Shown piece by piece: positions 4,320 through 40,043 of a stretch of 42,765 nt of DNA. The DNA comes from Escherichia phage K1ind2. The DNA lies in sequence record NC_041898.1. One strand, given 5' to 3'. The stretch's first letter is position 1; each line of letters begins with the position of its first letter. Both the position numbers and the translations under genes were made by a program. The notes beneath the pieces are model-generated. The model did no database searches, was not told where the DNA came from, and saw only the letters and a program-made list of their open reading frames with translations.

Positions 4320-4324
4320 ACTGA

Positions 4325-4614: not shown

Positions 4615-4643
4615 GCGCCCCGCTTTAAGGCGGGGCTTTACTT
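4615..4643 (+). terminator. Terminator-like hairpin upstream of spanin genes
   Basis: gcgccccgc-ttta-aggcggggc stem-loop followed by T-rich run, about 20 nt before the Rz-like RBS (aaagggggaaacATG). Confidence 0.4.
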
Positions 4644-4661
4644 ATCGAGAAAGGGGGAAAC

Positions 4662-5048
4662 ATGAATCTTAAAGCAACTGTCGTAGCGGGAGCATGTTTC
4701 ATCATCCTGACTTACGCACACGGCATCTACCAGTATCGCATCGGCTGGAACGAAGGCCGGGCCAATCTCGTTTCACAGCAACAGCAGAAAGCACAGGCTG
4801 AGTTAGCGAAGAAAACACAACGGCAGCAGCAGGATGAATCAAAGGCCGCGGCTGCTGACAGCGAAGGCAAGACGAAATCAGAGGTGATTACCCGTGAAGT
4901 CGTTAAGTACATTAAAACGCCTGGTCGCAGCGTGTGCACTTTTGACCCTGAGCGCGTGCAGCTCAAGTCCCGCGCCGTCGCAAACGCCAATTCCATCCCC
5001 GGATATGACGATGATGCAGCCGCCGTGCAAACTGGCCCCGCCAAGTAG
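4662..5048 (+). CDS. i-spanin (Rz-like)
   Basis: 128 aa; N-terminal transmembrane segment (VVAGACFIILTYAHGIY) followed by Q/K/E-rich predicted coiled coil; embedded +1-frame lipoprotein ORF - the classic Rz/Rz1 overlapped architecture. Confidence 0.7.
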   Translation: MNLKATVVAGACFIILTYAHGIYQYRIGWNEGRANLVSQQQQKAQAELAKKTQRQQQDESKAAAADSEGKTKSEVITREVVKYIKTPGRSVCTFDPERVQLKSRAVANANSIPGYDDDAAAVQTGPAK

Positions 5049-13777: not shown

Positions 13778-13807
13778 TTTAAATCCCTCCATTGTTGGTG
13801 TAAGTGA

Positions 13808-13836
13808 ATAGTACCCTATTATATTGGGGTGTGCAA
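13808..13836 (-). promoter_or_regulatory. Sigma70-type promoter (TTGCAC-N17-TACTAT) driving the minus-strand island
   Basis: Minus-strand TTGCAC (plus 13831-13836), 17-nt spacer, TACTAT (plus 13808-13813); 35 of 37 nt identical to the plus-strand promoter at 36087-36123. Confidence 0.6.
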
Positions 13837-13944
13837 GTAATGTGATAGAATAATTTTGCGCCTAGTGTCGCACACGAAAAGCGGGTGGTTCCCGTCTGGC
13901 GCATTTATCGTTAACCTGTAACCTCTTAACCAAAGGATTAAAGA

Positions 13945-14726: not shown

Positions 14727-16992
14727 TACCGCTAGCTTGATAGTACGAGTATCATCGACCGGCGTCGATAAAACCACATCACAACTGAACGGGCTTACCA
14801 AGGCGGCGGGGGCCGCCGCCGCCGCCGTTGTCAGTCTGGAAACCGCTAAGCAGGTGTTCAGCGCGCTGGTGGATTCCCAGCGAAACTTCGATAAGCTGAA
14901 CTCCGGCCTCATCACGATGACCGGGAGCGCCGAGAACGCGGCTAAGGCTTTCAGCGTACTGCAACAGTTCGCAAAAGAGACCCCGTACGGTCTCAATCAG
15001 GCGGTAGAGGGGTTTACCAAGCTCGTTGCGCTCGGTCTGAACCCCAGCAAAGAGGCGTTAATCTCCTACGGCAACACCGCGGCGGCTATGGGTAAAGACC
15101 TTAATCAGATGATTGAGGCAGTTGCCGACGCCAGTACATTTGAATTTGAGCGCTTAAAAGAGTTCGGCATCAAGTCGTCGCAACAGGCAGATACAGTTTC
15201 GTTCACGTTCCGCGGTGTAACGACCACGGTTAAGAAGAACTCCGAAGAGATTCAGAAATACCTCCTGAATATCGGCAACACCGATTTTGCCGGGGCGATG
15301 GAGACGCGCTCTAAGACGCTAGACGGCCAGTTATCGAGCCTCGCCGACTCCTTCGACGGTCTTGTTCTTGCGGTGGCGCAGTCTGGTTTTGGCGACGCCG
15401 TAGGTGAGCAAGCGGCCACAGCGGAAGACGCTATCACGGCGCTTACCGACGCCATCGCGTCTAATGAGATAGCCGCCACGCTCCAGGATTGGGTGGCGCT
15501 GTTCAATGAGTCATTCAAGTTTATTTCCGACGCCTTGAATGACCTGGCATTCGATACCGAGGACAAATCCGTTGATATGTCTGACTCGCTGGGGACTATA
15601 CCGGATGCCATCCGTGAGTGGTTGCCGGACATCCAGCAGACATTTCACGAGGTTATTGCGTGGTTCCAGCGCATCGACGATTACGCTGTAGCGTTAGGGC
15701 AGACCCTTGCCGACGTGTTTGACCCGAGCAAAACGGCGGCGCTAACATTTAAAAACCTGACCGCAGAGGCCGACGCCGCGTACGCCGCTAGCATAAAACG
15801 CGCAGAGGCAGAATCACAGGCCATTACCAACAGGTCTAAGCAGCGTAAGAAAGAAATTGAGGAACAGCGCAAGCAGTACGACGAGCGCAAGAAGCAAGAA
15901 ATTGACTTAGCCAGTCTTGTTAATAAAAAGGGCGGAACTGGCGGGGCAGGAAACACCGACGATAAAGCGGCAAAAGCCGCCGCCAAGAAAGCAGAACAAT
16001 TGCGGAATCAGGCGCAGGATTACCTCGACACTTTGGCTCGCCAGAACAACGATGAGTTAAAGGCTATCGACGCGCAGGAACAGCAGAAACTGGCTAAGGC
16101 AAAAGAGTTCTACAGCCAGGGCGCGCTGTCGCTGAAAGAATACGAACAGGCTAAAACAGCTATCGTCCTCGAAGCCGGGCAAAAACGGCAAGATGAACTG
16201 GATAAACGCCAGAAAGAAGCCCAGGAAAAGCAGCAGAAAGGCGACGACTTCATGGCTCAGATTATGGGCCAGAATGCCACTGAGCTTGAGCTTCTAGACA
16301 TCCAGGAACAGCAGAAACTGGCGGTCGCGGATAAGTACCGTGAGCAGGGGCTTATTAGTGAGACGCAGTATCAGGCCGCGCTTAACGCCATCAACGAGCA
16401 ATACGCAACCAAACGTGCCGATGCAACGGCAACGGCCTTTGGTAACATGGCCTCAAACATCGGGTCTGCGTTGGGTGAGGCTTCTGGCGCGTACAAGGCA
16501 TTCGCTATCGTACAGGCCACTATAGCCACGTACACCGCAGCTATTGAGGCGTACAAGTCAACGGCGGCTATCCCTGTAGTTGGCCCGTTCCTGGCCCCTG
16601 TAGCCGCTGCCGCTGCCGTTGGTGCAGGTATGGCGCAGGTTTCCGCTATCCGGTCCGCGCGTGAACAGGGTGGACAGTTATCCGCAGGGCAGGCTTCCAC
16701 CATCGCAGAACGCGGTAAACCAGAAGTTATTATGCCAGCTGGCGCATCTCGTGTTCGCACCGCGCAGCAGATGAAAGAGATTATGGGACAAAACGGGTCT
16801 TCTTCCGGCCCGTCTAATGTTACTATCGTAAACAACACGAGTTCTCAAATCGGCAACGTATCTACTGAGCAAGATGATGAAGGCCGTCTGCGTATCATCA
16901 TAGAAGAGCAAGTTGCTGCATCTTTGCAGAACAGCAACAGTAAGATTAGCAAGGCCCGCAAAGCCACAAGAAATGCGCCGGGGTTTAAATAA
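14719..16992 (+). CDS. Tail tape measure protein
   Basis: ORF track 14704-16992 (TTG); ATG 14719 preferred. About 760 aa, A/Q/E/K-rich and alpha-helical, located after the chaperone pair. Confidence 0.8.
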   Translation: MADTASLIVRVSSTGVDKTTSQLNGLTKAAGAAAAAVVSLETAKQVFSALVDSQRNFDKLNSGLITMTGSAENAAKAFSVLQQFAKETPYGLNQAVEGFTKLVALGLNPSKEALISYGNTAAAMGKDLNQMIEAVADASTFEFERLKEFGIKSSQQADTVSFTFRGVTTTVKKNSEEIQKYLLNIGNTDFAGAMETRSKTLDGQLSSLADSFDGLVLAVAQSGFGDAVGEQAATAEDAITALTDAIASNEIAATLQDWVALFNESFKFISDALNDLAFDTEDKSVDMSDSLGTIPDAIREWLPDIQQTFHEVIAWFQRIDDYAVALGQTLADVFDPSKTAALTFKNLTAEADAAYAASIKRAEAESQAITNRSKQRKKEIEEQRKQYDERKKQEIDLASLVNKKGGTGGAGNTDDKAAKAAAKKAEQLRNQAQDYLDTLARQNNDELKAIDAQEQQKLAKAKEFYSQGALSLKEYEQAKTAIVLEAGQKRQDELDKRQKEAQEKQQKGDDFMAQIMGQNATELELLDIQEQQKLAVADKYREQGLISETQYQAALNAINEQYATKRADATATAFGNMASNIGSALGEASGAYKAFAIVQATIATYTAAIEAYKSTAAIPVVGPFLAPVAAAAAVGAGMAQVSAIRSAREQGGQLSAGQASTIAERGKPEVIMPAGASRVRTAQQMKEIMGQNGSSSGPSNVTIVNNTSSQIGNVSTEQDDEGRLRIIIEEQVAASLQNSNSKISKARKATRNAPGFK

Positions 16993-24007: not shown

Positions 24008-24031
24008 TAAGGCCCCAAACGGGGCCTTTTC
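24008..24031. terminator. Bidirectional terminator between tailspike and minus-strand replication module
   Basis: aaggcccc-aaacg-gggcctt hairpin with flanking T-runs; near copy of the terminator at 11358-11380. Confidence 0.65.
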
Positions 24032-24352: not shown

Positions 24353-25773
24353 TTCTTACCTCGTCTCTTCATGTAATTAAGCAATTCTTCCTGGACCGAT
24401 TTTTTCTCGTCGGTGCGCGCGGCAACAACCTCGTCCAGCGTGTCTTTAGCAACGATGTGATACAGGAACACCGGTCGCTCGTGCCCCGCCTGTTTCTGGC
24501 GGACCGGGCCTATTCGCTCGACAACCTGCAAATAGTGTTCAAGATTCCAGCCTTGCGAAATAAACGCCAGATGATGCCCGCCGTCCTGTAAATTCAAACC
24601 ATGCCCGGCTGACGCAGGATGCACGCATAAGATTTCGATTTCCCCGCGGTTCCACGCTTCCATCTGCTTATTGCCCTTAGCGCCTTTGGCGAACGCCTGT
24701 GCTTGTGGGAATCGCTTAAGGATACGCTCCAGTTCGTGCTTAAACTGATAGGCTACCAGTAACGGTGCGCCCTGTAACTCCTCAACAATGGACTCAAGCG
24801 CATCCAGTTTCGTATCGTGCACTTTCTCCCAGTCTTTCGTTGCTTCGCCGTCTGGCCCGGATACATACACGGCACCGGATGCAATCTGCAGGCACTTCGA
24901 CGTCTTCGCAGCAGCGTTAGCCGCTTCAACTTCCCCGCTCTCCAGTTCCGCGAATAACTTTTCCTCCATATCGATGTACGCCTGACGCGCCTTCTTCGGC
25001 AGGTCGATTTCAACCGGTACAATAATCGGCGCTTCGCAACCAAACCACTCGGCGGCGTCAATCGTGAGACTAATGTCTTTCATCTTCTGATGAATCTCAT
25101 TATCCGCACCCGGTCGTGCGTGATACTCCCGCGCCATCGCGGATTTCCCTTTCTGTACCGAGTTAAACCAGCGGTCTGTGAATGCCGTGTACGAAGAACC
25201 AAGGCGCTCGCCAGCGTCGATAAACCAGTTCTGCCCCCACAAGTCCTTGAGGCCGTTCGGCGACGGTGTGCCTGTCAGGTTAATGAAACGCTTAACCTTT
25301 CCGAACGCCACTTTGCTTAGCGCCTTAGCCCGTTTGCTTCCTCCAGAACGGCTACGGAAAGATTTCAGCTTCGTGCTCTCATCAGCAACGATAACCGTAA
25401 AAGGCCAGTCGTCTTTGCCGTAGTAGTCAATCAGCCACTCGATAACTTCGTAGTTTGTGCACACCACGTTAGCATCTGACTCCAGCGCCGCGATACGGCG
25501 CTTCTCTGAACCGGTTGCGTCTACGACACTCAGACAGGGGAAGTTCCAACGTGCCTGTTCCGCGGGCCACGTACCTGACGCAACACGTAAAGGAGCCAGA
25601 ATTAACACTCGGTCGTCGTCATTAAGTTGCCCATTACGGAACAGTCGATTGAGAACCCACAACGTTGACCCCGACTTACCGCTGCCCATGCTCGCCCAGA
25701 TATTGCAGCGATGGTGCCGCAGCATGAACGAAGTCATGAGCTTCTGGTATTCGCGCCTTTGAAACTTACTCAT
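24349..25773 (-). CDS. SNF2-family (superfamily 2) DNA helicase
   Basis: 474 aa; Walker A ASMGSGKSGST; DEST-type Walker B (VIVADESTKLK); C-terminal helicase domain motifs. Confidence 0.8.
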   Translation of the reverse strand: MSKFQRREYQKLMTSFMLRHHRCNIWASMGSGKSGSTLWVLNRLFRNGQLNDDDRVLILAPLRVASGTWPAEQARWNFPCLSVVDATGSEKRRIAALESDANVVCTNYEVIEWLIDYYGKDDWPFTVIVADESTKLKSFRSRSGGSKRAKALSKVAFGKVKRFINLTGTPSPNGLKDLWGQNWFIDAGERLGSSYTAFTDRWFNSVQKGKSAMAREYHARPGADNEIHQKMKDISLTIDAAEWFGCEAPIIVPVEIDLPKKARQAYIDMEEKLFAELESGEVEAANAAAKTSKCLQIASGAVYVSGPDGEATKDWEKVHDTKLDALESIVEELQGAPLLVAYQFKHELERILKRFPQAQAFAKGAKGNKQMEAWNRGEIEILCVHPASAGHGLNLQDGGHHLAFISQGWNLEHYLQVVERIGPVRQKQAGHERPVFLYHIVAKDTLDEVVAARTDEKKSVQEELLNYMKRRGKK

Positions 25774-26695
25774 TTACCGCCCCCATGAATGCCTTTATAA
25801 ATTCAGCGGCTACTTGCGGGACGATGGCATTGCCATAACCGCGCAATCGTCCCACTCTGGCGGGTATCCCATTAGCCAGCGGGAATGTGCCGGGTTCAAC
25901 TGGCCTGAATTTTCCATCACGGCATCCGAGCCAGTCAGTATCTGACCAGAAGCCGTGATGCGGATTGGTTGTGTTATTTTCAGACCCTGCTCCGTCGAGT
26001 AGTCCAGCCTGTCGAATGTCCTGTCCTTCCCGTCCTTGCGAATCACTGTCTCTCCGCTCCCCCTGTAGTCGTTCGCTGTCGGTGTAGGCCAAGCCGCCAT
26101 CGCAGCGGCCCATCCCAGTTTGTTCGGTTTCGTCCTGCCGTCTGTGCTGCGCATGTTCACGTCGTTTGTTATCAGTGATACCGCCGGTGTGGGCCAGTCT
26201 GTGAGCGCCGAAGAACAGTCTGTCGCGTTTGTGCGGTGCGCCGACGCTACAAGCTGGGAGTACGGCAAACCCGACGGCGTAGTCTTCTCCTTCCAGGTGA
26301 GTTTGTAAATCGCACATCCACGATTTTGCAATTGCTGGCGCAACCTGCTCCCCAAAGAGGACTGGAGGTCGGCACTCGCTGATAAGGTCGAGGAACACAG
26401 GTGCGAGGTGTCTCGGGTCGAACTGTCCGAGTTGCTTTCCCGCCGCGCTAAACGGTTGGCAAGGCGGGCTTCCCGTCCAGAGAGGCGCATCTTCCGGAAC
26501 TCCCGCAAGTCTGAGCGCGAGAGGCCAGCCGCCGATACCCGCGAAAAAATGACACTGGGTGAACCCGTCAAGGTCTTCTGGCTTAACTTCGGTAATGCTT
26601 CTTTCATCTACAACTCCAAAAGGTATGTGACCCTGTTTTATCAACTCACGCAGCCACGCGGCTGCGCCTTTATCCCATTCATTGTAATAGTTCAT
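25766..26695 (-). CDS. DNA cytosine-C5 methyltransferase-like protein (frame anomaly in middle)
   Basis: 309 aa; motif I FAGIGG, motif IV GSPPCQPFSAAGK, ENV-like FGEQV, motif VIII APHKRDRLFFG, C-terminal motif X GNAIVPQVAA. Central 100 aa are low-complexity, while an overlapping same-strand ORF (25810-26607) reads a protein-like segment ending in a motif IX-like LNPAHSRWLMGYP. Confidence 0.65.
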   Translation of the reverse strand: MNYYNEWDKGAAAWLRELIKQGHIPFGVVDERSITEVKPEDLDGFTQCHFFAGIGGWPLALRLAGVPEDAPLWTGSPPCQPFSAAGKQLGQFDPRHLAPVFLDLISECRPPVLFGEQVAPAIAKSWMCDLQTHLEGEDYAVGFAVLPACSVGAPHKRDRLFFGAHRLAHTGGITDNKRREHAQHRRQDETEQTGMGRCDGGLAYTDSERLQGERRDSDSQGREGQDIRQAGLLDGAGSENNTTNPHHGFWSDTDWLGCRDGKFRPVEPGTFPLANGIPARVGRLRGYGNAIVPQVAAEFIKAFMGAVNE

Positions 26696-26883
26696 TTCGC
26701 CACCAGAACTAACTCTTTACGCCCGAACGCCGTAACGTTACCGGTTACATCTTCGATAACCAGTTTACCGTTCGACTCGACGAACACCGTATCAACGGCA
26801 ACAGGTTGACGTGTCTTAACGTTGAAAATCATGTCACCCGGTACGATGTCACGTGCTGGTTTGCGGTCATATTCGTGTTTCAT
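26692..26883 (-). CDS. Hypothetical protein
   Basis: 63 aa; first gene downstream of minus-strand promoter copy at 26917-26945. Confidence 0.4.
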   Translation of the reverse strand: MKHEYDRKPARDIVPGDMIFNVKTRQPVAVDTVFVESNGKLVIEDVTGNVTAFGRKELVLVAK

Positions 26884-26913
26884 TTCTCAATTCCTTATAT
26901 TGTTGGTGTAGGA

Positions 26914-27198
26914 CTAACTATAATAGCTAGCTATTAGGTCGTCAACCTGTTTAAACGAACCAACGACAAAAACATTCGCACCACGTTTACGCATCCGCTC
27001 ATGTTCCCGTAGCTGGTGCGGGTCTGGCTTCGTGTTCTCGTCTTTCTTAACCTCGACGAACCAGACTATGCCGCCGGGGAGAATTACCAGCAGGTCTGGG
27101 GCGCCGGAACGCCCCTCGTAGGAGAGTTTGCGAACGAGGCCGCCAAGGGCCTCGAATCGGTCTTTTGCGTATTTCTGTACGCGGCCCTCTTTAGTCAT
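26914..27198 (-). CDS. VRR-NUC domain nuclease (PD-(D/E)xK)
   Basis: ORF track 26914-27213; ATG at 27198 (ATGA overlap with upstream small ORF) preferred. Motif GAPDLLVILPGGIVWFVEVKK matches the D...E-x-K core of VRR-NUC proteins. Confidence 0.6.
   Translation of the reverse strand: MTKEGRVQKYAKDRFEALGGLVRKLSYEGRSGAPDLLVILPGGIVWFVEVKKDENTKPDPHQLREHERMRKRGANVFVVGSFKQVDDLIASYYS
26917..26945 (-). promoter_or_regulatory. Sigma70-type promoter (TTGACG-N17-TATAGT), copy 1 of 3
   Basis: Minus-strand -35 TTGACG (plus 26940-26945), 17-nt spacer, -10 TATAGT (plus 26917-26922); about 31-bp element conserved with 30471-30499 and 32569-32597. Confidence 0.6.
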
Positions 27199-27347
27199 GA
27201 GCGTAGATCCCAAGTAAGGAAAGCCCCTCCTAGAACGGCGACACCGACAAACTTAAAGAACAGGCCGTAACAGAACATCGCGGCTATTCCCGCACCGAGT
27301 AACAGCGCGAGCATGGTTACTATCGTCCAAAATACAAACATTGTCAT
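27195..27347 (-). CDS. Small membrane peptide (50 aa)
   Basis: Hand-found; hydrophobic (FVFWTIVTMLALLLGAGIAAMFCYGLFF); ATGA overlaps at both ends. Confidence 0.3.
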   Translation of the reverse strand: MTMFVFWTIVTMLALLLGAGIAAMFCYGLFFKFVGVAVLGGAFLTWDLRS

Positions 27348-27433
27348 AACACGCACCCCTCCCGTTTTGTATGCTCAATACCGCAGCGCGGGCAGATTCG
27401 GCAGTCTTCTTCATAGAACCAGTAAATTTTCAT
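27344..27433 (-). CDS. Small Cys-rich peptide (29 aa)
   Basis: Hand-found; DCRICPRCG...EGC; ATGA overlaps on both sides. Very short, so weak. Confidence 0.2.
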   Translation of the reverse strand: MKIYWFYEEDCRICPRCGIEHTKREGCVL

Positions 27434-27561
27434 TCCAGCACCCACAGATAAATTGCAACTAACATACACAATACGGCGACCATCATGCCGTATTGCCCCT
27501 CATGACAGTAGACACCCGCGGCGAATCCCGCCAGTACCGCGATAATCAGTTTACTTAGCAT
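27430..27561 (-). CDS. Small membrane peptide (43 aa)
   Basis: Hand-found; hydrophobic; ATG overlaps the 3' end of the DNA polymerase gene. Confidence 0.3.
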   Translation of the reverse strand: MLSKLIIAVLAGFAAGVYCHEGQYGMMVAVLCMLVAIYLWVLE

Positions 27562-29731
27562 AACGCTTCATCTCCGCACCTTCTGCTACAAGAGGGAACC
27601 CCTCAGCCCATTCCGGTAATTCGCACATCAACCGCTCAAGCTCTGCAACATTGTATTCTGGTAAATCTGGTGTCTCGCAGATAATCTCATCGTGTACGTG
27701 AAGCACAATCGGATAGCCGTTTGCTTCTACGTTAAGCAGCGCATTAGCCAACAAATCACGGCACAGCGCCTGAGTGCAGTTTTCCACGAGTTTACCGGAA
27801 TATGTGTACTGGAAGCCCCACTGCCGTGTTAACTGGTTTTCGCCCTGGTACTTGATGCGGACGTTAGTGGACACCTTCCCGTCTTCGTCTGTCTCTTTCG
27901 ACACGCTTAACCCGACACCTGGATAAGACATAACGCGGCCCGACGGCAACGTCATGCGCAACCACCAACCGGCGACTTTGTTGCCGTTGTTATCTGTCTC
28001 TACGTTACGCGAAAACTTAACGCCGCGAGGCCCTGCAGTGAACTCTTTACCTGGATTGCGGATAGCTGCCATAGCTGCGTCTTCAATATCCCGCCAGAAA
28101 GCTACTGTTTCAGGGTGAGACTCCCGCCACATACGCTTGATGGCGTCGCATGTACGCCACACTTTCTTGTCCAGAATATATGATGGTCGGTCATCTTTTT
28201 CACCGGGACGTGGCGGTCTCTTGGCTTCCTGAATACGCGCCCACTCATACCCACGCGCGGTAGCGGCCCAGATGTGGTCGGGGAAAGTCCCGTCCATTGT
28301 TTTTGCCATATCAACAAGGTCAAGGCCGAGGTTCTTGGCGAACTGTACGAATGCGCCGACACCACCCGCGTAGCCAAGTCCCAGTTCGCATGCCTTACCA
28401 ATCTGGCGTAAGTCTTTACGTTCTTTCTTAATGTAATCCGGCTCCATACCGAACATCTTACCCGCGGTTACGCAGTAAATATCCAGTCCGGCACGGAACG
28501 TATCTAGCGCGGTTTCTTCCCCCGCCAGCCACGCAAGCCCGCGGCCTTCGACGTTAGAGTAATCGGCAACGACAAACTTATGTCCGGCTTCCGGGATAAT
28601 GCAGCTGCGAACCGTAGATGCCGTTAGCTTGGCTACATCAAAACGGCGATGTGCTCGGCCCTTAAGTAATGCTGAAATACCTTTATCCAGTTCATCATCG
28701 TGATAGTACCCACGCGCCAGGTTCTGCGGCTGGAAGCCTTTACCCGCAAATCGTAACGTACGTTTAGCTCCACCATACTGGATGCAACCGCGACGGCGGT
28801 CGTCAGACGAGCGGCCTAACAGCAGCGGGTTATATTTCGTTGACGCAGTGGATGCCGCCCCGAGGCGCATTTCTATAATCGTGCGGGCGTCGTCCGGTAA
28901 ATCATCGTCAGCAAGCAGGTCGTTAAGCGTAGACTTCTGCGCGTTGTGGATGCGATGCGCAGGCGCCAGTTCACGCAGAATCGGCAGGAAGTCCTTACCT
29001 GTAAGCGAGCCGCCGTATTTACGTTGGGCTTCTTCCTGTAACTGTGCCTTGTGTTTCTCCACAGCTTCAATTGCGGCTTCCGCCAGCGCAACGTCGACCT
29101 TAAACCCGCGGTCGTTAATTAACTGGTCCAGTTCCAGTACACGGTCTTCGAACTCGGAGTTACCCCAACGCGGCAACTTATGGAACACTTCACGCATCGC
29201 GGTGATGTCGCTAACGGCGTACTTGATGAACAGCGCCCACTCATCCGGGTGCGTTTCAGCAGTGTAGCGGCGAATTTTGTAGTTCTTCGGCGTCGGTTTA
29301 GAGAAACGCTGAATAAGCGCTTTGCCTCGTTTGTCTTTCGCGTTGTCTGCAGACACGCCAAGCACTTCGCACAATGCGTCGAGTGAACCCGGCAGCGCGT
29401 GACGAAACGCCCAAATCATCGTATCAATGGTGTTGCTTACGGGAATATCAAAACCCCAGCAGTGCTTCATGATGAGTCTGTCGAACATTGAGCCGTTGTG
29501 CCACACCATCTTAATACGGCTGTTTGGTTTCACCAGACGGCGTAACGCGCGGTGCAAATCCCCCGGCATGTCGCTGCCGTCGGTGCAGTCCCATACCTGT
29601 ACATGCTCGTCGTCAAAAGCATATGTGCAGATAAGCACTTCGGTGGTTGGGTGTTCGGCGTAAGCGTAGGAACCAACTTTCTTCAAATCGGCTTCGGAGA
29701 ATGTTTCAAAGTCTAAGAACAGGTAACTCAT
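27551..29731 (-). CDS. DNA polymerase I-type (family A) with N-terminal 3'-5' exonuclease domain
   Basis: 726 aa; N-terminal LFLDFETFS exonuclease motif; C-terminal family A motif C (VLHVHDEIICE). Confidence 0.9.
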   Translation of the reverse strand: MSYLFLDFETFSEADLKKVGSYAYAEHPTTEVLICTYAFDDEHVQVWDCTDGSDMPGDLHRALRRLVKPNSRIKMVWHNGSMFDRLIMKHCWGFDIPVSNTIDTMIWAFRHALPGSLDALCEVLGVSADNAKDKRGKALIQRFSKPTPKNYKIRRYTAETHPDEWALFIKYAVSDITAMREVFHKLPRWGNSEFEDRVLELDQLINDRGFKVDVALAEAAIEAVEKHKAQLQEEAQRKYGGSLTGKDFLPILRELAPAHRIHNAQKSTLNDLLADDDLPDDARTIIEMRLGAASTASTKYNPLLLGRSSDDRRRGCIQYGGAKRTLRFAGKGFQPQNLARGYYHDDELDKGISALLKGRAHRRFDVAKLTASTVRSCIIPEAGHKFVVADYSNVEGRGLAWLAGEETALDTFRAGLDIYCVTAGKMFGMEPDYIKKERKDLRQIGKACELGLGYAGGVGAFVQFAKNLGLDLVDMAKTMDGTFPDHIWAATARGYEWARIQEAKRPPRPGEKDDRPSYILDKKVWRTCDAIKRMWRESHPETVAFWRDIEDAAMAAIRNPGKEFTAGPRGVKFSRNVETDNNGNKVAGWWLRMTLPSGRVMSYPGVGLSVSKETDEDGKVSTNVRIKYQGENQLTRQWGFQYTYSGKLVENCTQALCRDLLANALLNVEANGYPIVLHVHDEIICETPDLPEYNVAELERLMCELPEWAEGFPLVAEGAEMKRYAK

Positions 29732-29744
29732 TATTTTCGACCCT

Positions 29745-29771
29745 TAGTAAAAAGGCCCAATGAAGGGCCTT
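29745..29771 (-). terminator. Terminator/attenuator hairpin between SSB-like gene and polymerase gene
   Basis: Minus-strand reading aaggcccttcattgggcctt followed by TTTTT. Confidence 0.5.
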
Positions 29772-29790
29772 AGTTAAATTGATTCAGATA

Positions 29791-30417
29791 TTAACGGCGA
29801 CGACGTTCGCGGCGCGGTGCTTCATCCTCTTCATCGTCTTCAAGGTCATCGACGCTTGCGGCTACTTTAGAACCGCCAAACGCTTTACCTTCACCAACGT
29901 ATTTAATAGCCAGCAGGTTAACGCCGAGGACTTTGTATTTCTGGCTGAACCAGATTTCAACGCTTACGTTAGCGACGCAGCCGCTGTAAACCTGTTCACC
30001 TTCAATCTGTTCGCCGTCTACATTGAAGTCCTGTTCTACCTGAGTCTCGCCTTTTTTAGAGGTTACAATCAGTGGCTGTTTCTGTGCCTTCGCCTTGAAG
30101 TAGAAGCCTTCCGGGAAGTCTTCAAACGGATTGTCGCGCTCGGCAATGTCTTTAATCGCACATTTATCCATGTGCTTACCTTCGCCGTAGTTTGACTTCA
30201 TCCACTTCTCAGCGGCAGCTGCGCCCAACGCTTCTTCAACCACAGCGTAAACGGTGTCGTAGAGCGCGTCGATTTGTGCGTGGTCAGACGGCAGGATGAT
30301 AGTCGCGCTGTACTGGCCTTTAGTGATTGAGCCATCATCGTTTTCACGGTCTTTTTCGCGTTCGAATACGTTAACCCATGCAGTGTTTACTTTACGCAGA
30401 TTCAGTTTAATACCCAT
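29791..30417 (-). CDS. Single-stranded DNA-binding protein (T7 gp2.5 / DUF2815-like, putative)
   Basis: 208 aa; acidic C-terminal tail (DDLEDDEEDEA) then basic end; position next to polymerase and Cas4-like nuclease. Confidence 0.5.
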   Translation of the reverse strand: MGIKLNLRKVNTAWVNVFEREKDRENDDGSITKGQYSATIILPSDHAQIDALYDTVYAVVEEALGAAAAEKWMKSNYGEGKHMDKCAIKDIAERDNPFEDFPEGFYFKAKAQKQPLIVTSKKGETQVEQDFNVDGEQIEGEQVYSGCVANVSVEIWFSQKYKVLGVNLLAIKYVGEGKAFGGSKVAASVDDLEDDEEDEAPRRERRRR

Positions 30418-30470
30418 CGTGATTTCTCGCTTTTCAGTTTACTCCGGGAACTGCCCGGCCAGTGATTAGA

Positions 30471-30499
30471 ACTATAATAGCTAACTATTCAGGTGTCAA
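30471..30499 (-). promoter_or_regulatory. Sigma70-type promoter (TTGACA-N17-TATAGT), copy 2 of 3
   Basis: Minus-strand -35 TTGACA (plus 30494-30499), 17-nt spacer, -10 TATAGT (plus 30471-30476). Confidence 0.6.
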
Positions 30500-30503
30500 C
30501 ACT

Positions 30504-31769
30504 TTATTCCAAATCTTCTTCACTAACCTGATTCCACTCAGGACGTTTGTCGTCTGCCGTTGCGACACATGGTGCGCCTGGCTTACGGGTAATAAACGGC
30601 TCAAGCGCTGCCATCTCATCCGCAGAAAGAACTTTTGCTGCCTCCGTAGGGGACATCAATACCTCTTTTTTGAGAATGTCGCCGTGTGACACTTCAATCG
30701 CATCGGCATCTTTCCACGCACGATTACCCGGGCGGCCTTCTACCAGTTTGTACCCTGGCACTTTCTTACCTGAATGCAATGTGGCGGACATCGCTTTCTC
30801 AACCTTGTCGATGTGCTGGCGCAACAGCGGCAACTTCTCATACTCAACTACGAGTTGCTCCGTCGTCAGTTCCAGCACAAAGTCGTCTTCAAGTTCTTCC
30901 GCCAGTACAGAATTAACCGTCTTTGTACGCGCGGCACACTGTTCAGAGAACCGGCACCACTGGCAACCATCGACCGACGGTTTAAAGTCCGACGCTTTCA
31001 GGTTCTTCTTTCCACGGAAATAAGCATCAAGCGCTAACAGTGCCCGTTTCTGTGCGAACTTAGCGAACAGTTCCAGACCTTCGACCGAGATGTCCCACTC
31101 TGACGCACCCCCCGCGTACGGCTGGAAGATGACCAGGCGCACTACTGTGATGTTATAACGTCTCTTGAGTCGGCGATAAACACCGAGAGCGTAAAGCATA
31201 AGCTGCTTGTTTTCTTTCGCTTCAACACGATGCCGTCCAGTTTTAAGGTCGCCAATAATGAGCATGTGCTCGTCGGTGTTCGCCAGTTCCTGAACGGCAA
31301 CAATGTCGGCGGTTCCGAATGTCTCAACGCCTTCGTAGCCTGGATGCAATACCTCAGTAAGATTGACACGCATCTCGAGTTTGGCGTAAGTCGCTACATC
31401 GATAACAGCTTTGCAGTGGTCGGTGTACTTGCGCACCTGCTCAATCATGTCAGCCGTAATCAGTACCGCGCCTTTCATCGGGCTGCTTAGCGCCTTAATC
31501 TGGCCTTTACCCTCATCCAGCACGTAAGCACCTACTTCGCGCTCTAACGGCAACGCAGTGCCTTTGATGTACTGGTTTAAGTGCATCTCAGCTATGGTGT
31601 GCATAGCCGTCCCTAATACGGCGGCTTTACCTGACGTGTTAGGAATATCTTTTTCACAGGCCAGTGATGCACTGCACGCCAGCCACTTTTTAGCACCAGA
31701 CGGCGACAGTAAGGCGTGCACATCGTTATTGCCGCCGCGTTCCTTTAAAATCATACCCTGCTCTCCCAC
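30504..31769 (-). CDS. PD-(D/E)xK nuclease with Cas4-like cysteine cluster (DUF2800-like exonuclease)
   Basis: 421 aa; GTADIVAV and IIGDLKTG (D...D-x-K core), QLMLYAL (QxxxY), C-terminal CQWCRFSEQC plus an N-terminal Cys, as in Cas4/RecB-family nucleases. Confidence 0.7.
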   Translation of the reverse strand: MGEQGMILKERGGNNDVHALLSPSGAKKWLACSASLACEKDIPNTSGKAAVLGTAMHTIAEMHLNQYIKGTALPLEREVGAYVLDEGKGQIKALSSPMKGAVLITADMIEQVRKYTDHCKAVIDVATYAKLEMRVNLTEVLHPGYEGVETFGTADIVAVQELANTDEHMLIIGDLKTGRHRVEAKENKQLMLYALGVYRRLKRRYNITVVRLVIFQPYAGGASEWDISVEGLELFAKFAQKRALLALDAYFRGKKNLKASDFKPSVDGCQWCRFSEQCAARTKTVNSVLAEELEDDFVLELTTEQLVVEYEKLPLLRQHIDKVEKAMSATLHSGKKVPGYKLVEGRPGNRAWKDADAIEVSHGDILKKEVLMSPTEAAKVLSADEMAALEPFITRKPGAPCVATADDKRPEWNQVSEEDLE

Positions 31770-32023
31770 TGGTCAATTAAATGTCGTGTCTGGTGATGGC
31801 AATGCATGACCCACCCGTACATCGACTCGAAGACATAAAAGTCAGGTTTGGCGAAAGTCGTGCGCTTAATCTGCGACACGTGACGGCCTATATCTTTAGG
31901 CCGTGGTACTTTTCCTAAGTACGCCATCTCTTCCATCTGGTGCGAGCCAGACGGCGCACGTAACAGCCATAGCGCCTCTGTGTTATCCCGCCGGTCAACG
32001 GCGCGGTATAGTTGGTAAATCAT
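31751..32023 (-). CDS. Hypothetical protein
   Basis: 90 aa; overlaps start of nuclease gene by 19 nt; contains CHHQTRH. Confidence 0.4.
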   Translation of the reverse strand: MIYQLYRAVDRRDNTEALWLLRAPSGSHQMEEMAYLGKVPRPKDIGRHVSQIKRTTFAKPDFYVFESMYGWVMHCHHQTRHLIDQWESRV

Positions 32024-32066
32024 AATCCCGACCCTCGGTTAAAGCGGCCCGAAGGCCGCGGGATAG

Positions 32067-32537
32067 TTATTCTTCTTCGAAATACTTGTTCTTGATTGCT
32101 GTCAGGCGCTCCAGATACTCAGCCAGGTCTTCGTCTTTAATCGCTGCAATCTTCATCTTCTTTCCGGTAAACTCTTCCAGCAGTTCGTCAGAATCGTCGC
32201 ACGCGGCATCGCTTGGGCCTTCGTTAATCGCATCGTCGATAGCCTGAATCTGGTCGCGCAGAGACTGGTAATCGACTTCTTCTTTCTCTTCTTCCGGCTC
32301 TGGCGTTGGCTCCTCTACTTTAGCTTTACGCGGCTTGCGCTTCGGCTTCTCTTCTTCTGCTGGTTTAGTGTCAATGGTGTCTTCACCTTCTACCGGGATT
32401 TCTTTCGTTACTTCTTTCACAACAGTAGGCTCTATTGTTGCAGTTTTGGCAACGACAACTTGTTTCGCACTGTTCGCAGCAATCAGTTCATGTGCAACTA
32501 CGAAACGTTCCAGTAATACTAAGAATTTCTCTAACAT
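32067..32537 (-). CDS. Hypothetical acidic early protein
   Basis: 156 aa; GAGGAG SD before ATG; highly acidic/lysine-rich middle; first gene downstream of promoter copy 3. Confidence 0.45.
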   Translation of the reverse strand: MLEKFLVLLERFVVAHELIAANSAKQVVVAKTATIEPTVVKEVTKEIPVEGEDTIDTKPAEEEKPKRKPRKAKVEEPTPEPEEEKEEVDYQSLRDQIQAIDDAINEGPSDAACDDSDELLEEFTGKKMKIAAIKDEDLAEYLERLTAIKNKYFEEE

Positions 32538-32568
32538 TATTTATTCTCCTCTCGTTTGGTATGGTCTA

Positions 32569-32597
32569 ACTATAATAGCGAACTATTCACTTGTCAA
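32569..32597 (-). promoter_or_regulatory. Sigma70-type promoter (TTGACA-N17-TATAGT), copy 3 of 3
   Basis: Minus-strand -35 TTGACA (plus 32592-32597), 17-nt spacer, -10 TATAGT (plus 32569-32574). Confidence 0.6.
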
Positions 32598-32661
32598 CGG
32601 GCTTTTCTAAAATAATTAATATGGTACTATTCACATATCAACTGACTAAGGAGTAATTGAC

Positions 32662-32877
32662 ATGCAACCATCTGAACTAGGCATCCGTGTAGAACAGCGC
32701 CGTAAAGAACTCGGTATTTCCCAGCGCAGTCTGGCTGTCCTGGCCGGCGTTTCCCAGGGTGCAATTAACCAGCTTGCACTCGGGGTAACGCGGGACGTCC
32801 GCCCAGCAACACTGTTTAAACTGGCGGAAGTGCTAGAGGTAGATGCCAAGTGGCTGGCGTTCGGTGAAGGGGCTTAA
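32662..32877 (+). CDS. XRE-family helix-turn-helix transcriptional regulator (Cro/CI-like)
   Basis: 71 aa; HTH signature LGISQRSLAVLAGVSQGAINQLALG; AAGGAG SD 8 nt before ATG; lone plus-strand gene inside the minus-strand module, divergent from promoter copy 3. Confidence 0.75.
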   Translation: MQPSELGIRVEQRRKELGISQRSLAVLAGVSQGAINQLALGVTRDVRPATLFKLAEVLEVDAKWLAFGEGA

Positions 32878-32894
32878 CGCCCCTTTCTTTTTAC

Positions 32895-35162
32895 CTATTC
32901 CAAATCTTCCTCGGTCACTGTAAGCATTTCATTCGGTTCGTATATTGTCTTCGGAATCTTGTTGTCCGTTATTCGGGTATTCAATCTGTAACGGCCCGGG
33001 ATTATCTGATTGTTTTCGTCCGTACCAGGTACAAGATACCCCGCCTCAACCATTTTCTTAATCTTTCCGCGTTCTATGGCTTCTTTGGAGTTGAACGCCT
33101 TCGCGTTGGGGTCAGACTGTGCGAGCTTATTTGCCGCGGCTACCGTGATACCTTCGTTGCCGTTGTAGGTTCCTTCCGCCAGTTCAAACGCCGCCAGTAT
33201 CGTGGCTTCCGAACTGTTGACGGCGTTCTCCATGGTTCTACGTACGTTTTCTTTACCTTCCTTAGTCAGTCCTTCTTCCCGCTCTTTCTCCTCGTCGGTC
33301 TTGAACGGTTCGAAGCCCCACGGCATAAGCACAAGCGCTTTGTGCGGCTCAGGCAGGTCGAGGTTAACGGTTGTGCCGTATTCCTCTGTGCTACCGAGGA
33401 ACTCAACCGCGCGGTATTCTTTCGGTGGCGGGGCTTCGCGGAACTGTACCGACTCAAGCACCATACCAACCGTCTTCTGTTGCGGCCCATGCTTAAATTT
33501 AGAGTGGTATACATTTATCTGACGGTCTGTCGCGCGTTCGATTGTCAGCTCCACATCGACGCCAGCGTACAGCGCACCACTACCTCGGGCTTTCTTTCCG
33601 CCCTTCGGTGTATGGTGTACAACGCCTACCGCAGCTTTAGTCGCGTCACGTACTTCTTTCAGGATGGCGATAACCTTACCCATGCCGATTGCCGTTGATG
33701 AACTGTTCTCGTCGAACTTATCAATCGTCAGGGCTAGCGTCTGGTTGAGGGTGTCGAACGCAACCATGCCGATGGGTTCGTCACCCGCAGTTTCACGCAT
33801 CAACTTAATCAGGCTTTTCAGTTTTCCGACTTCGCCCATGTCGATGACATGTACATAATCTTTACCTTCCTCGCTATACTTAGCTGCGAGCGCATCGATA
33901 CGGGTGCGTGTAGCTGCGCCGCCCTCACCGTCGATATAAAAATGGTGGCAACGCTGCGTATCTGCCCCCGCAAACCGGTATCCGGCGGCGCTCAGGTACA
34001 TCATCCCCAGCGTATAGAACGATTTGTACGTGCCGGATTCCCCGACAATATCCCAGATACAATCTGACGGCATGTACCCTTCAACGACGAAATCCGCCTT
34101 TACCGGTTCCGGTAACTCGTCATCCTCTGAGTCCTCATCATCTTCCAGGTCGTCGAGGCTGCATGAAACAGATTCACGTGCACCCCATCCGATGGCCTCT
34201 GCGACTTCACTGAACGGCAGCCCCGTCGCATCGCACGCATACTTCCACACCTCTTTCGGTGACATGCCTTCGGTCGCCGTAATGTCAGTGTCGTGAATCA
34301 TGGTTACGTTCGGCGCCTCATATCCCTCTCGCGGGAAGCACAGCAGGAAGTCATCCGGGCGCGGCGTCGGGTCGCTGTAGTTTTCTGCGTGTTCTGGCGT
34401 AGCTGGCATCTTAAGGCCTCGTGGCGTCATGATACCGCCATACTCGAACGCCAGTGCCTCGAACGCGTCGGTAAACGCGGTGCGCAGTTCTTCCGGTATC
34501 TGGTAATCCGATGCGCTGCTAACGTCAACGGCGGGGATGCCTTCCAGTAACTCGTCCGGGTCAATCAGGTCGTTGCGGCGTGACCAGATAACGGTAGAGC
34601 CAACCGGAGGCAGGTACATCGGTTGCGAAAGAGTGAACCCGCTGCGGTCAGCACCCATGCTTTTGAAGAAGTGTTCCAGCAATCCATGGCGAACACGGAT
34701 GATGTCACCACCTTCGACCGGACGGGCCAGCGGCATGACGACGCGAAAGCGCGGGGACTCGTCGGTATGTGATGCCGTGGTATAGATACACAGGCCCCGG
34801 CGGCTGCGTTTAACTAAGCGCACCGCTTCCTGATACTCTTCTGGTGTTGCGCTGTCGAAGTCCAGATACGCCAGCGACGATTTGCTTACAGACGCGTCAC
34901 AGCGATAGAAAAAGCCTTTACGCGCTTGCTTAAAGTCGGCGGTTTCCGGGTCTTTTACAGTGCTGTGCGTCGAGTCGCACGCGGCGGTGATATAACCGGG
35001 CGCGGTCTTCGGGTTAATTCCGTCACGGACAGCATCGAGTGGCTGGATTAACTCTTTCAGGTCGTCCAGTGTTGCCGTGTGTGTGGTTCTGACGTTTATA
35101 TCCTTTTTCTCAGCCCGCGCGTTGCGACGCGACCACGAGTAGGATAAAATTACATCGGACAT
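32895..35162 (-). CDS. Primase-polymerase / helicase fusion protein (AEP-like N-terminus, RecA-like ATPase C-terminus)
   Basis: 755 aa; N-terminal LAYLDFDSA (DxD) and TASHTDE consistent with an AEP/prim-pol domain; central Walker A GESGTYKS and Walker B-like VAFDTL. Confidence 0.65.
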   Translation of the reverse strand: MSDVILSYSWSRRNARAEKKDINVRTTHTATLDDLKELIQPLDAVRDGINPKTAPGYITAACDSTHSTVKDPETADFKQARKGFFYRCDASVSKSSLAYLDFDSATPEEYQEAVRLVKRSRRGLCIYTTASHTDESPRFRVVMPLARPVEGGDIIRVRHGLLEHFFKSMGADRSGFTLSQPMYLPPVGSTVIWSRRNDLIDPDELLEGIPAVDVSSASDYQIPEELRTAFTDAFEALAFEYGGIMTPRGLKMPATPEHAENYSDPTPRPDDFLLCFPREGYEAPNVTMIHDTDITATEGMSPKEVWKYACDATGLPFSEVAEAIGWGARESVSCSLDDLEDDEDSEDDELPEPVKADFVVEGYMPSDCIWDIVGESGTYKSFYTLGMMYLSAAGYRFAGADTQRCHHFYIDGEGGAATRTRIDALAAKYSEEGKDYVHVIDMGEVGKLKSLIKLMRETAGDEPIGMVAFDTLNQTLALTIDKFDENSSSTAIGMGKVIAILKEVRDATKAAVGVVHHTPKGGKKARGSGALYAGVDVELTIERATDRQINVYHSKFKHGPQQKTVGMVLESVQFREAPPPKEYRAVEFLGSTEEYGTTVNLDLPEPHKALVLMPWGFEPFKTDEEKEREEGLTKEGKENVRRTMENAVNSSEATILAAFELAEGTYNGNEGITVAAANKLAQSDPNAKAFNSKEAIERGKIKKMVEAGYLVPGTDENNQIIPGRYRLNTRITDNKIPKTIYEPNEMLTVTEEDLE

Positions 35163-35220: not shown

Positions 35221-35496
35221 TTATTCCAGGTCGCGGGAGATATTACCCTCGGGCACCAACACTTTTCCAATACTTCTCGCTTTCTCTGTAATAGGCGTCG
35301 CTCTTGTTGCCCGATAAAACTTTCCTTTATTAAGAATCTCACCATGTCGCTCGAGCACATCTAAAGCATGTTTGATCGGGTTTACACCGTAATTATCCAA
35401 CCGGTATCTCCGAAGCCCGTCTACCGTAAAAGCGCCGTTCGCTTCGGTCAGTCTGCGTGCACACATTAATATGTGTTTCTGGAATTTAGTTAGCAT
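35221..35496 (-). CDS. Hypothetical protein
   Basis: ORF track 35221-35541; internal ATG at 35496 with GGAGAA SD preferred (91 aa). Confidence 0.4.
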   Translation of the reverse strand: MLTKFQKHILMCARRLTEANGAFTVDGLRRYRLDNYGVNPIKHALDVLERHGEILNKGKFYRATRATPITEKARSIGKVLVPEGNISRDLE

Positions 35497-35665
35497 CTTT
35501 AACGTTCTCCTTAATCCACGCCTCCACAGTAGCGCGGTCAAAGGTACCTGGCTGACGGTAGCCGTTGATAACGCGGCAACACTCCGGGAACTTTCCTGAC
35601 CGAAGCCAGCGATTAAGAGTCATAGGGGAAACCCCGATTAAGTCTGCTACTTCTTTCTGTGTCAT
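35486..35665 (-). CDS. Small HTH DNA-binding protein (AlpA/excisionase-like)
   Basis: ORF track 35486-35695; ATG at 35665 with GAGAGGG SD preferred. TQKEVADLIGVSPMTLNRWLRSGKFPE is a typical AlpA/MerR-type HTH. Confidence 0.6.
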   Translation of the reverse strand: MTQKEVADLIGVSPMTLNRWLRSGKFPECCRVINGYRQPGTFDRATVEAWIKENVKDAN

Positions 35666-35736
35666 TTTACACGCCCTCTCTATCAAGTGAAACAACTATA
35701 ACACCTACAATAGACAAACACAACCTATTGACAAAA

Positions 35737-35765
35737 TAAAATGTAGCTGTAAAATCAACGTATCG
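35737..35765 (+). promoter_or_regulatory. Candidate sigma70 promoter (TTGACA-N16-TAAAAT) in long intergenic region
   Basis: TTGACA at 35737-35742, 16-nt spacer, TAAAAT; about 380 nt upstream of the first plus-strand early gene. Confidence 0.4.
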
Positions 35766-36086
35766 AATGGCTTTAGTTAAGAATTACTTAGAAACAATAT
35801 TCTTAAGTCTCGGGTACTTAAAGCCCCGCCATAAAGCGGGGCGCTAAATAGTACTCTTGGTAACGTTAGTATCTAAGTTTCCTCAAAGTAACAGCAAGTG
35901 GCAAGAAAGCCCCCGTCTATTTAAATTTTACCCTCCTTCATAAGACACTGATAATTAAAAGTTTCTATAGTTGCCGTAAACGTGGAAGAGAGTACTTCAC
36001 TTCGCTGGGGTGGGCTAACGCCCACCCACTGCGTTGCGTACTCTTTTAAGAAACGAAAGAATCACAACGGCAACGTAACTATTCTC

Positions 36087-36115
36087 TTGCACACCCCAAC
36101 ATAATAGGATACTAT
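36087..36115 (+). promoter_or_regulatory. Sigma70-type early promoter (TTGCAC-N17-TACTAT)
   Basis: -35 TTGCAC 36087-36092, 17-nt spacer, -10 TACTAT 36110-36115; about 35 nt upstream of ATG 36150; near-identical copies at 13808-13836 (minus) and 37387-37415. Confidence 0.65.
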
Positions 36116-36149
36116 TCACTTATCGAGACGAGACAGAGGAGTGAGGGTT

Positions 36150-36547: not shown

Positions 36548-36726
36548 TGCGAATCCGTATAACTGACCGCAGGCTTGTCCGTATAACTGACCGCAGGCTT
36601 ATAGATTTCGGTATCTCGGTAGGTGATGTTTTTCCGGCGTTCAGCATCAACCATTATGGTTTTATGATTGAGTACAAAGGGTCGTTATTGTTCGTGTATC
36701 GGGATGAATGTGAGGTTCTGGTATGA
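36547..36726 (+). CDS. Hypothetical early protein containing an in-frame 8-codon tandem duplication
   Basis: ORF track 36538-36726 (TTG); ATG 36547 with GAGGGAGG SD preferred (59 aa); encodes RITDRRLVRITDRRLI from the 24-bp DNA tandem repeat. Confidence 0.4.
   Translation: MRIRITDRRLVRITDRRLIDFGISVGDVFPAFSINHYGFMIEYKGSLLFVYRDECEVLV
36554..36601. repeat. 24-bp tandem direct repeat, 2 copies
   Basis: tccgtataactgaccgcaggcttg followed by tccgtataactgaccgcaggctta (47 of 48 positions identical). Confidence 0.9.
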
Positions 36727-37386: not shown

Positions 37387-37415
37387 TTGCACACTAAGAT
37401 AGAATAGGCTACTAT
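37387..37415 (+). promoter_or_regulatory. Sigma70-type early promoter (TTGCAC-N17-TACTAT)
   Basis: -35 TTGCAC 37387-37392, 17-nt spacer, -10 TACTAT 37410-37415; same family as 36087-36115. Confidence 0.6.
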
Positions 37416-37445
37416 TCATTTACACAAGCGAGAGGAGAGACAGAG

Positions 37446-39994: not shown

Positions 39995-40014
39995 CTGTTT
40001 TCTGTAATGACTAG

Positions 40015-40043
40015 TTGACTATTACCTTAGACCCTATTATATT
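40015..40043 (+). promoter_or_regulatory. Candidate sigma70 promoter (TTGACT-N17-TATATT)
   Basis: TTGACT 40015-40020, 17-nt spacer, TATATT 40038-40043; about 35 nt upstream of ATG 40077. Confidence 0.5.

Follow-up and report, generated by a model that had tools for sequence, protein, structure and literature searches.

A palindrome shared by promoter-like repeats of Escherichia phage K1ind2 and a Cro-like protein as its candidate ligand

Three promoter-like repeats in the replication region

The window analysed here is the whole 42,765-nucleotide stretch of Escherichia phage K1ind2 (NC_041898.1), in which coordinate 1 is the terminase start. Judged by its sequence, it is the complete genome of a K1ind-type Kagunavirus (Guernseyvirinae), a group that is regarded as virulent. 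The replication region (26000–33500) is 100% identical to that of Escherichia phage K1ind3 (GU196281) and is matched by about 470 Escherichia and Salmonella phage records at 60–95% identity; GU196281, the closest record, contains no promoter annotations. An earlier model reading of the letters (the sequence-only reading) had proposed that this region carries three copies of a conserved 31-bp leftward promoter, and that an additional factor binds the promoter spacer. Here, we analyse these repeats, which we term class A, together with the palindrome they contain and a neighbouring gene for a small Cro-like protein. The three copies are as follows.

26916–26946, minus strand: copy 1 (A1), with −35 TTGACG (26945 to 26940), palindrome AATAGCTAGCTATT (26922–26935) and −10 TATAGT (26922 to 26917); the downstream gene (63 aa) starts at 26883.
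30470–30500, minus strand: copy 2 (A2), with −35 TTGACA (30499 to 30494), palindrome (30476–30489) and −10 TATAGT (30476 to 30471); intergenic, 47 nt upstream of an Enc34-type single-stranded DNA (ssDNA)-binding protein gene (ATG 30417).
32568–32598, minus strand: copy 3 (A3), with −35 TTGACA (32597 to 32592), palindrome (32574–32587) and −10 TATAGT (32574 to 32569); upstream of a 156-aa gene of unknown function (ATG 32537) and back to back with the promoter region of the candidate regulator gene.

The degenerate 31-mer matches the plus strand at exactly these three places and nowhere else in the window, and none of 100 dinucleotide shuffles contained a match. The number of copies is thus as had been claimed, with end coordinates that were off by 1–2 nt; copy 3 has one mismatch to the consensus given at the time. 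When read on the minus strand, the copies (GTTGACGACCTAATAGCTAGCTATTATAGTT, GTTGACACCTGAATAGTTAGCTATTATAGTT and GTTGACAAGTGAATAGTTCGCTATTATAGTT) have the form GTTGAC(A/G)-N17-TATAGTT, and their identity stops just outside GTTGAC and TATAGTT. The −35 hexamer is TTGACG in copy 1 and TTGACA in copies 2 and 3, and all three have TATAGT at 17-bp spacing. They agree with the sigma-70 consensus at 10–11 of 12 positions and are among the four best sigma-70-like matches between 23.5 and 42.8 kb, so that their description as near-consensus promoters holds. The minus-strand open reading frames (ORFs) downstream also begin where the sequence-only reading had placed them, at 26883, 30417 and 32537, which is 25–47 nt beyond the predicted transcription starts, with GGA/GAGG ribosome-binding motifs ahead of the start codons. 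In their hexamers, their spacing and their location ahead of a ribosome-binding site and start codon, the copies look like strong sigma-70 promoters.

Copy 1 covers the final ten codons of the minus-strand ORF 26914–27213, and its −10 hexamer abuts the TAG stop codon. This ORF had been called a VRR-NUC gene. The position of copy 1 in its 3′ end is correct, whereas the identity of the gene has a Pfam match to VRR_NUC that is below threshold (E 0.0015) and is backed by the annotation of relatives as VRR-NUC, Holliday junction resolvase or endonuclease.

The copies had also been said to partition the replication module, but no terminators were found beside them. The only convincing minus-strand terminator in the module is the final one at 24009–24028, and no other was found from 35.7 kb to 24.0 kb; the hairpin that follows the helicase-primase gene has its T run on the plus strand only. 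We thus conclude that the class A copies are internal promoters of one long leftward operon. An explanation of the symmetry by bidirectional promoters was rejected for these copies, as the reverse reading offers neither a usable −35 nor a gene to serve.

The leader downstream of copy 2 contains, ahead of the ssDNA-binding protein gene, a CCGGG-N5/6-CCCGG hairpin (30440–30458, minus strand), and Kagunavirus, Jerseyvirus and St162 all retain its sequence (at syntenic positions in L048 and L101). A role in autoregulation or as an RNase site is possible. Because its folding energy is unexceptional (z-score 0.2), we rejected the idea that it is a stable RNA element.

A 14-bp palindrome inside and outside the replication region

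Within the class A elements, a 14-bp palindrome, AATAG-N4-CTATT, lies between −35 and −10 and spans about −25 to −12. Searching the genome for this dyad with up to two mismatches gave 17 strand hits against 2.3 expected. Six perfect dyads are present (at 13807, 26922, 30476, 32574, 36103 and 37403) compared to 0.037 expected from Markov simulations. All six stand in promoter-like contexts, 25–47 nt before start codons and on both strands, and the dyads with one mismatch include those at 32618–32631 and 40010–40023. In addition to class A, the following promoter-like sites contain the palindrome.

36087–36118, plus strand: class B promoter B1, TTGCAC-N17-TACTAT; palindrome AATAGGATACTATT (36103–36116) overlaps the −10; ahead of rightward small genes (ATG 36150).
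37387–37418, plus strand: class B promoter B2, TTGCAC-N17-TACTAT; palindrome at 37403–37416; ahead of a gene starting at 37446.
13807–13836, minus strand: class B promoter B3, TTGCAC (13836 to 13831), N17, TACTAT (13813 to 13808); palindrome at 13807–13820; ahead of a leftward block starting at 13777, inside the tail region.
32618–32631, plus strand: imperfect fourth palindrome AATATGGTACTATT, overlapping an extended −10, TGgTACTAT (32622–32630), about 30 nt upstream of the candidate regulator gene.
40010–40043, plus strand: possible weaker member, TTGACT-N17-TATATT, after the lysis-cassette terminator; one-mismatch palindrome ACTAGTTGACTATT over the −35 and half-site CTATTATATT at the −10.

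On the plus strand, B1 and B2 read CTTGCAC-N17-TACTATTCA, and a ribosome-binding site and an ATG come about 30 nt further downstream. The palindrome takes a different register in the two classes. In class A, it occupies the spacer and reaches the −10 (centre near −18.5), whereas in class B it overlaps the −10 (centre near −12.5). A dyad that occurs in two registers and in both orientations looks like an operator rather than a polymerase recognition sequence. The claim of a 31-bp leftward promoter as the conserved unit therefore needs to be amended: the repeats exist, but the selected unit is the 14-bp palindrome, which is found in at least seven promoter contexts on both strands and is not confined to the replication module.

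Two further dyad-like sequences were observed at other positions. Directly after the portal-gene terminator, a one-mismatch dyad TATAGTATGCTATT (2776–2789) lies over the annotated ATG (2782) of the head morphogenesis gene, whose true start may be the downstream ATG at 2816. An everted dyad ACTATTCGAATAGT (4397–4410), which Bas71 shares (near 5222), follows a terminator in a stretch of about 320 bp (4344–4661) that lies ahead of the spanin genes and contains no ORF of at least 70 aa. For the dyad at 13807, we also considered that it might serve, at about −44.5, as the activator site of an extended −10 promoter (TGaTAGAAT) that reads rightward; as a general mechanism this was rejected, since the geometry is not conserved in the Jerseyvirus Ent3.

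To compare the sites among relatives, loci from IMG/VR were collected with the neighbouring regulator gene, not the motif, as anchor. Bas71 (L047) and Ent3 (L048) were added and the orthologues of each site were aligned, which gave 15 distinct sequences for copy 1 and 44 each for copies 2 and 3. The left arm AATAG is kept in 14/15, 41/44 and 42/44 sequences of copies 1, 2 and 3, respectively, and the right arm CTATT in 14/15, 43/44 and 34/44; eight Jerseyvirus copy-3 sequences have the right arm CGATT. The 4-bp centre of the dyad occurs in nine or ten variants per site, and the linker between −35 and dyad varies and even changes length by gaining a base. TTGAC is invariant in the 44 copy-2 orthologues, and the alignments indicate that the dyad arms are as conserved as the hexamers. 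The same architecture is found in Ent3 at the syntenic positions 28011, 32221, 34451, 15800 and 37971. Thus, the elements occur at the same places in Kagunavirus and Jerseyvirus relatives, so that the absence from close relatives that would have refuted the sequence-only reading is not observed, and the earlier suggestion that an extra factor binds the spacer is borne out by the comparison, in which the dyad arms are conserved while the centre drifts.

At 15790–15830 in Ent3, one dyad is common to two fully overlapping divergent promoters. The rightward promoter, TTGACG-17-TATTAA, faces the tail operon, the leftward one is TTGCAT-17-TATTAT, and the dyad lies in both spacers. A single bound dimer could control both directions.

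We next turn to the Salmonella phages St162 and Shemara, which represent a sister lineage with conserved synteny: the replication genes point leftward, and a Cro-like gene diverges from them. The AATAG-N4-CTATT site is absent from St162. Instead, five sites of the form ATTAG-N4-GTAWT are found in both orientations (0.15 expected). They lie at the copy-3 equivalent, which has the same layout as copy 3 (TTGCTC, 5 nt, motif, ATAGTT), at two TTGACA-N17-TAATAT promoters, and at 13004 and 25360. One-mismatch versions are present at the copy-1 equivalent and on the promoter side of the regulator gene, and the partial Shemara sequence (7 kb) contains two ATTAG-N4-GTAWT sites. A search of IMG/VR with the St162-type promoter pattern gave 37 hits, most of them on unrelated contigs, so that this pattern proved too AT-rich for a specific search. 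Conversely, 49 loci of Kagunavirus or Jerseyvirus type (555 kb) contain 167 AATAG-N4-CTATT sites and no ATTAG-N4-GTAWT site. Since Jerseyvirus and the St162/Shemara lineage both infect Salmonella and their motifs differ, the motif tracks the phage lineage and not the host. The swap of the motif at syntenic promoters of the sister lineage thus points to a binding factor that is encoded by the phage.

A candidate regulator and the role of the palindrome

The best candidate for such a factor is encoded next to copy 3.

32662–32877, plus strand: 71-aa HTH_3 (XRE/Cro-like) gene for the candidate operator-binding protein, divergent from copy 3, between the helicase-primase gene and a gene of unknown function.
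32866–32886, plus strand: intrinsic terminator of this gene, a hairpin with a downstream T run that exists on the plus strand only.

This ORF has no annotation in GU196281 and Bas71, while many relatives annotate it as a repressor or XRE-family regulator. At the Bas71 counterpart (L047:32649-32861), a short hypothetical protein is called on the opposite strand instead. The protein matches Pfam HTH_3 with 48.7 bits (cut-off 23, E 8e-13) as well as PHROG families of transcriptional regulators, and its best sequence match in the PDB is phage 434 Cro, also of 71 aa (residues 6–68, E 4.5e-7). The AlphaFold (AF2) model has five helices (pLDDT 80.5), and its Foldseek matches are C.AhdI, C.BclI, 434 Cro (TM 0.73, 40% identity), SinR, 434 repressor and P22 c2. 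C.AhdI, 434 Cro and repressor, SinR and P22 c2 bind dyad operators as dimers, and the operators of 434 are 14 bp long. The imperfect dyad AATATGGTACTATT lies on the gene's own promoter side and is nearly invariant among Kagunavirus relatives; from its sequence and position, it is a putative autoregulatory operator.

A Cro-like protein is present in all three genera, with identities of 93, 51 and 41%, the last in the St162/Shemara lineage. The word-indexed protein search for the regulator returned only homologues of at least 75% identity, and a scan of IMG/VR for distant regulators found one 36%-identical locus (L098), which has unrelated CGTCAA repeats. In IMG/VR, exact matches to the class A pattern are located on contigs of 24–45 kb and on one 5.8-kb fragment; when the two lists of contigs are compared, 35 of the 36 contigs with the pattern also carry the regulator gene. 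A second early protein with a helix-turn-helix (HTH), of the HTH_17 family, is encoded at 35486–35695; no homologue of it was detectable in St162.

Taken together, we propose with moderate confidence that the class A copies are sigma-70 promoter-operator cassettes that are repressed by the 71-aa Cro-like protein. According to this proposal, host sigma-70 polymerase would start about 7 nt downstream of each TATAGT, and the class A promoters would reinforce leftward transcription of three sub-blocks of the replication operon: the 156-aa gene, the 90-aa gene and the DUF2800 nuclease from copy 3; the genes for ssDNA-binding protein, DNA polymerase and VRR-NUC from copy 2; and the 63-aa gene, methylase and helicase from copy 1. 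The ligand of the dyad would most likely be a dimer of the 434 Cro-like protein encoded at 32662–32877, which, when sitting over spacer and −10, would exclude RNA polymerase. As the protein accumulates, it would fill the dyads and block the class A and class B promoters, and later its own weaker site. The predicted outcome is a coordinated turn-down of the replication and early gene sets, combined with autoregulation.

Several points weigh against this proposal. In the literature that we searched, no transcription start, binding or expression data and no transcript mapping or regulator study were found for Guernseyvirinae phages. Motif and regulator co-occur within one monophyletic phage group, so that their association, a product of shared descent, does not count as independent support. 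The St162 motif was derived post hoc from the genome in which it was then counted, and it is only pseudo-symmetric. The recognition helices are SQGAINQ in Kagunavirus, SQSLITH in Jerseyvirus and TQSAISH in the Cornellvirus-like lineage. The Jerseyvirus helix resembles the Cornellvirus-like helix more than that of Kagunavirus, yet Jerseyvirus shares the Kagunavirus operator. The covariation of recognition helix and operator arms is thus ambiguous as to the binder, since the three helices do not sort with the two operator types. Lastly, the Ent3 palindrome is also within the spacer of the rightward tail-operon promoter. A simple model in which early genes are shut off and late genes allowed thus does not fit all sites, and the regulon may not be simply early.

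The evidence can also be read in other ways. The repeats might be plain sigma-70 promoters that arose by duplication of one cassette of promoter and leader, with spacers that are alike by descent or because they are good spacers, and with no extra factor. Near-consensus hexamers and spacing mean that the promoters need no help, and the downstream leaders are also similar. Duplication does not explain, however, that the arms stayed conserved across two genera while centre and linker diverged, that a promoter of different build contains the same dyad at a shifted register and on either strand, or that all sites changed together in the St162/Shemara lineage; we consider this explanation improbable. 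If an additional factor is granted, it might come from the host, with the phage exploiting the site of a host transcription factor. The hosts are closely related enterobacteria, and AT-rich dyads are common as regulator sites. Against this stands the distribution across hosts, as the Salmonella-infecting Jerseyvirus and St162/Shemara differ while Kagunavirus (on E. coli) and Jerseyvirus share the motif. We know of no E. coli regulator consensus that matches the dyad; the closest is the TrpR operator CTAG-N4-CTAG, which differs in the contacted bases. A host factor thus has hardly any chance of being the ligand.

Among explanations that involve a phage factor, the motif could be a phage-specific promoter, read by a phage RNA polymerase (RNAP) or by host polymerase that is redirected by a phage protein. 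This would agree with two papers in which the program PHIRE returned the motif, as seven "phage RNAP promoters" in fBC-Eco01 and as seven conserved promoter sequences in Golestan. PHIRE detects repeated words only, however, and an RNA polymerase gene is annotated in none of K1ind3, Bas71, Ent3 and St162. Furthermore, the motif is a dyad that occurs in both orientations and two registers relative to good sigma-70 hexamers, not an asymmetric sequence at a fixed position, which makes a phage-specific promoter very unlikely. A different possibility is that a phage protein binds the dyad but acts as an activator or dual regulator, or that the binder is not the Cro-like protein; for instance, the TTGCAC/TACTAT promoters might depend on the regulator for firing, or it might be required for the coordination of late genes. 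In class B, the −10 TACTAT matches the consensus at only 4/6 positions, the Ent3 dyad lies in the spacers of overlapping divergent promoters of which one serves the tail operon, the comparison of recognition helices is ambiguous, and a second HTH protein is available as a candidate. On the other side, steric repression classically uses a site centred between −35 and −10, as is seen here with the optimal 17-bp spacer, whereas activation of the MerR type requires spacers of 19–20 bp. The HTH_17 protein is undetectable in St162, where a promoter-embedded motif family is retained. We regard activation or another binder as unlikely.

The repression proposal can be extended to a temporal programme of the Guernseyvirinae, a subfamily of strictly virulent siphophages, in which one 434 Cro-like protein would act on at least seven single dyad operators in promoters across the genome. 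Some of these promoters would be repressed, and where promoters are shared or divergent, as at the tail-operon junction, the protein would in addition determine in which direction or when late transcription proceeds; in the Cornellvirus-like lineage, operator and protein would have acquired a new specificity by co-evolution. This extension is speculative and we consider it doubtful.

Among candidate phages for therapy and biocontrol directed at E. coli K1 and Salmonella, those of Kagunavirus and Jerseyvirus belong to the ones isolated most often. A set of strong promoters, a common operator and a named candidate regulator make up a concrete model of gene timing that is cheaply testable. The AATAG-N4-CTATT and ATTAG-N4-GTAWT variants of operator and regulator could also serve as an orthogonal pair of compact repressible promoters. 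The concept itself is that of a familiar Cro-type circuit, and the advance is incremental.

Neighbouring features, earlier reports and known systems

Some further features of the genome are outside the operator system. The leader of the tail-assembly-chaperone operon (13858–13905, plus strand) has a closing stem, GCGCC/GGCGC, around two hairpins. The structure is also present at L047:13811-13856, L048:15848-15894 and L101:33476-33522 (four sequences from three genera), and at 4 of the 14 predicted pairs both partners have changed with pairing preserved; a function in processing, antitermination or translation is possible. Two perfect tandem copies of the 24-bp unit TCCGTATAACTGACCGCAGGCTTG (36554–36600, plus strand) are located among small genes of the rightward early set; they might represent iterons or have arisen by recent duplication. 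Downstream of a rightward promoter close to consensus, TTGACA-16-TAAAAT (35728–35755), lie about 330 bp that contain several GC-rich hairpins and a single ORF, of 40 aa with a GTG start (35982–36104); B1 comes next. For the region 35728–36090, a role as non-coding RNA, origin or packaging region is conceivable. An Rfam search of the whole window matched no family, including at this region and at the tail-chaperone leader. Lastly, the interval from the head genes to the replication region is shorter in the window than in K1ind3, by 696 bp (window 3858–4319 compared to GU196281 3929–4552), and in the tested stretch 3600–4900 it matches K1ind1 at 99.8%, which suggests mosaic exchange among K1ind phages.

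The motif itself is already in print. For fBC-Eco01, PHIRE lists it as seven "phage RNAP promoters" with the consensus tgAATAGTa-ccTATTat-T (PMC9825357). For VB_EcoS-Golestan (PMC7203180), PHIRE gives seven conserved promoter sequences, which include equivalents of copy 3, the fourth imperfect site, B1, B2 and B3, and also of the site at 2776–2789; equivalents of copies 1 and 2 are not among the entries retrieved. Both papers give lists only, and one assigns the sites to a phage RNA polymerase for which the genome has no gene; neither mentions dyad symmetry, sigma-70 hexamers, the Cro-like gene or the sister-lineage motif. As no RNA polymerase gene is annotated in the four genomes, the label "phage RNAP promoters" is unsupported, and our analysis corrects it. 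The operator reading, the Cro-like candidate and the motif of the sister lineage appear to be new.

How does the proposed system compare to known regulatory circuits? The dispersed sites recall systems in which one regulator acts on many near-identical scattered sites, namely the C1 operators of P1, the conserved inverted repeats of phiC31 and the stoperators bound by gp71 of mycobacteriophage L5. Such sites are typically inside or just downstream of promoters. These systems maintain lysogeny, the P1 and L5 sites are asymmetric, and the L5 sites block elongation. In contrast, the sites described here are dyads inside promoters of a phage without a lysogeny module. A second comparison is to the controller (C) proteins of restriction-modification systems and their C-boxes, as C.AhdI and C.BclI are among the closest folds; these dimeric XRE proteins are small and recognize dyads at the promoters of their own genes. 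However, the K1ind2 regulator gene is about 6 kb away from the phage methylase gene (25766–26695) with no adjoining restriction enzyme gene, and the sites are spread over many unrelated operons.

The closest parallel is the Cro and repressor system of phage 434. The candidate regulator resembles its proteins in size (about 70 aa) and in its five helices, and 434 Cro is its best solved relative. The 14-bp dyad has conserved outer bases and a variable centre and lies inside promoters, as do the 434 operators in PR, PL and PRM; an imperfect dyad flanks the regulator gene on its promoter side, and this gene and an operon that it would regulate are divergent. The two systems differ in that the putative operators, assigned here from sequence, are single and dispersed at no fewer than seven places across the genome, whereas lambdoid phages have tripartite OR/OL arrays, and in the half-site, which is AATA(G) here and ACAA in 434. 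Neither a CI-type repressor with a C-terminal domain nor an integrase is annotated in K1ind3, Bas71, Ent3 or St162. Together with the single operators, this means that the locus is not a lambdoid immunity region, though it may work like the Cro arm of one.

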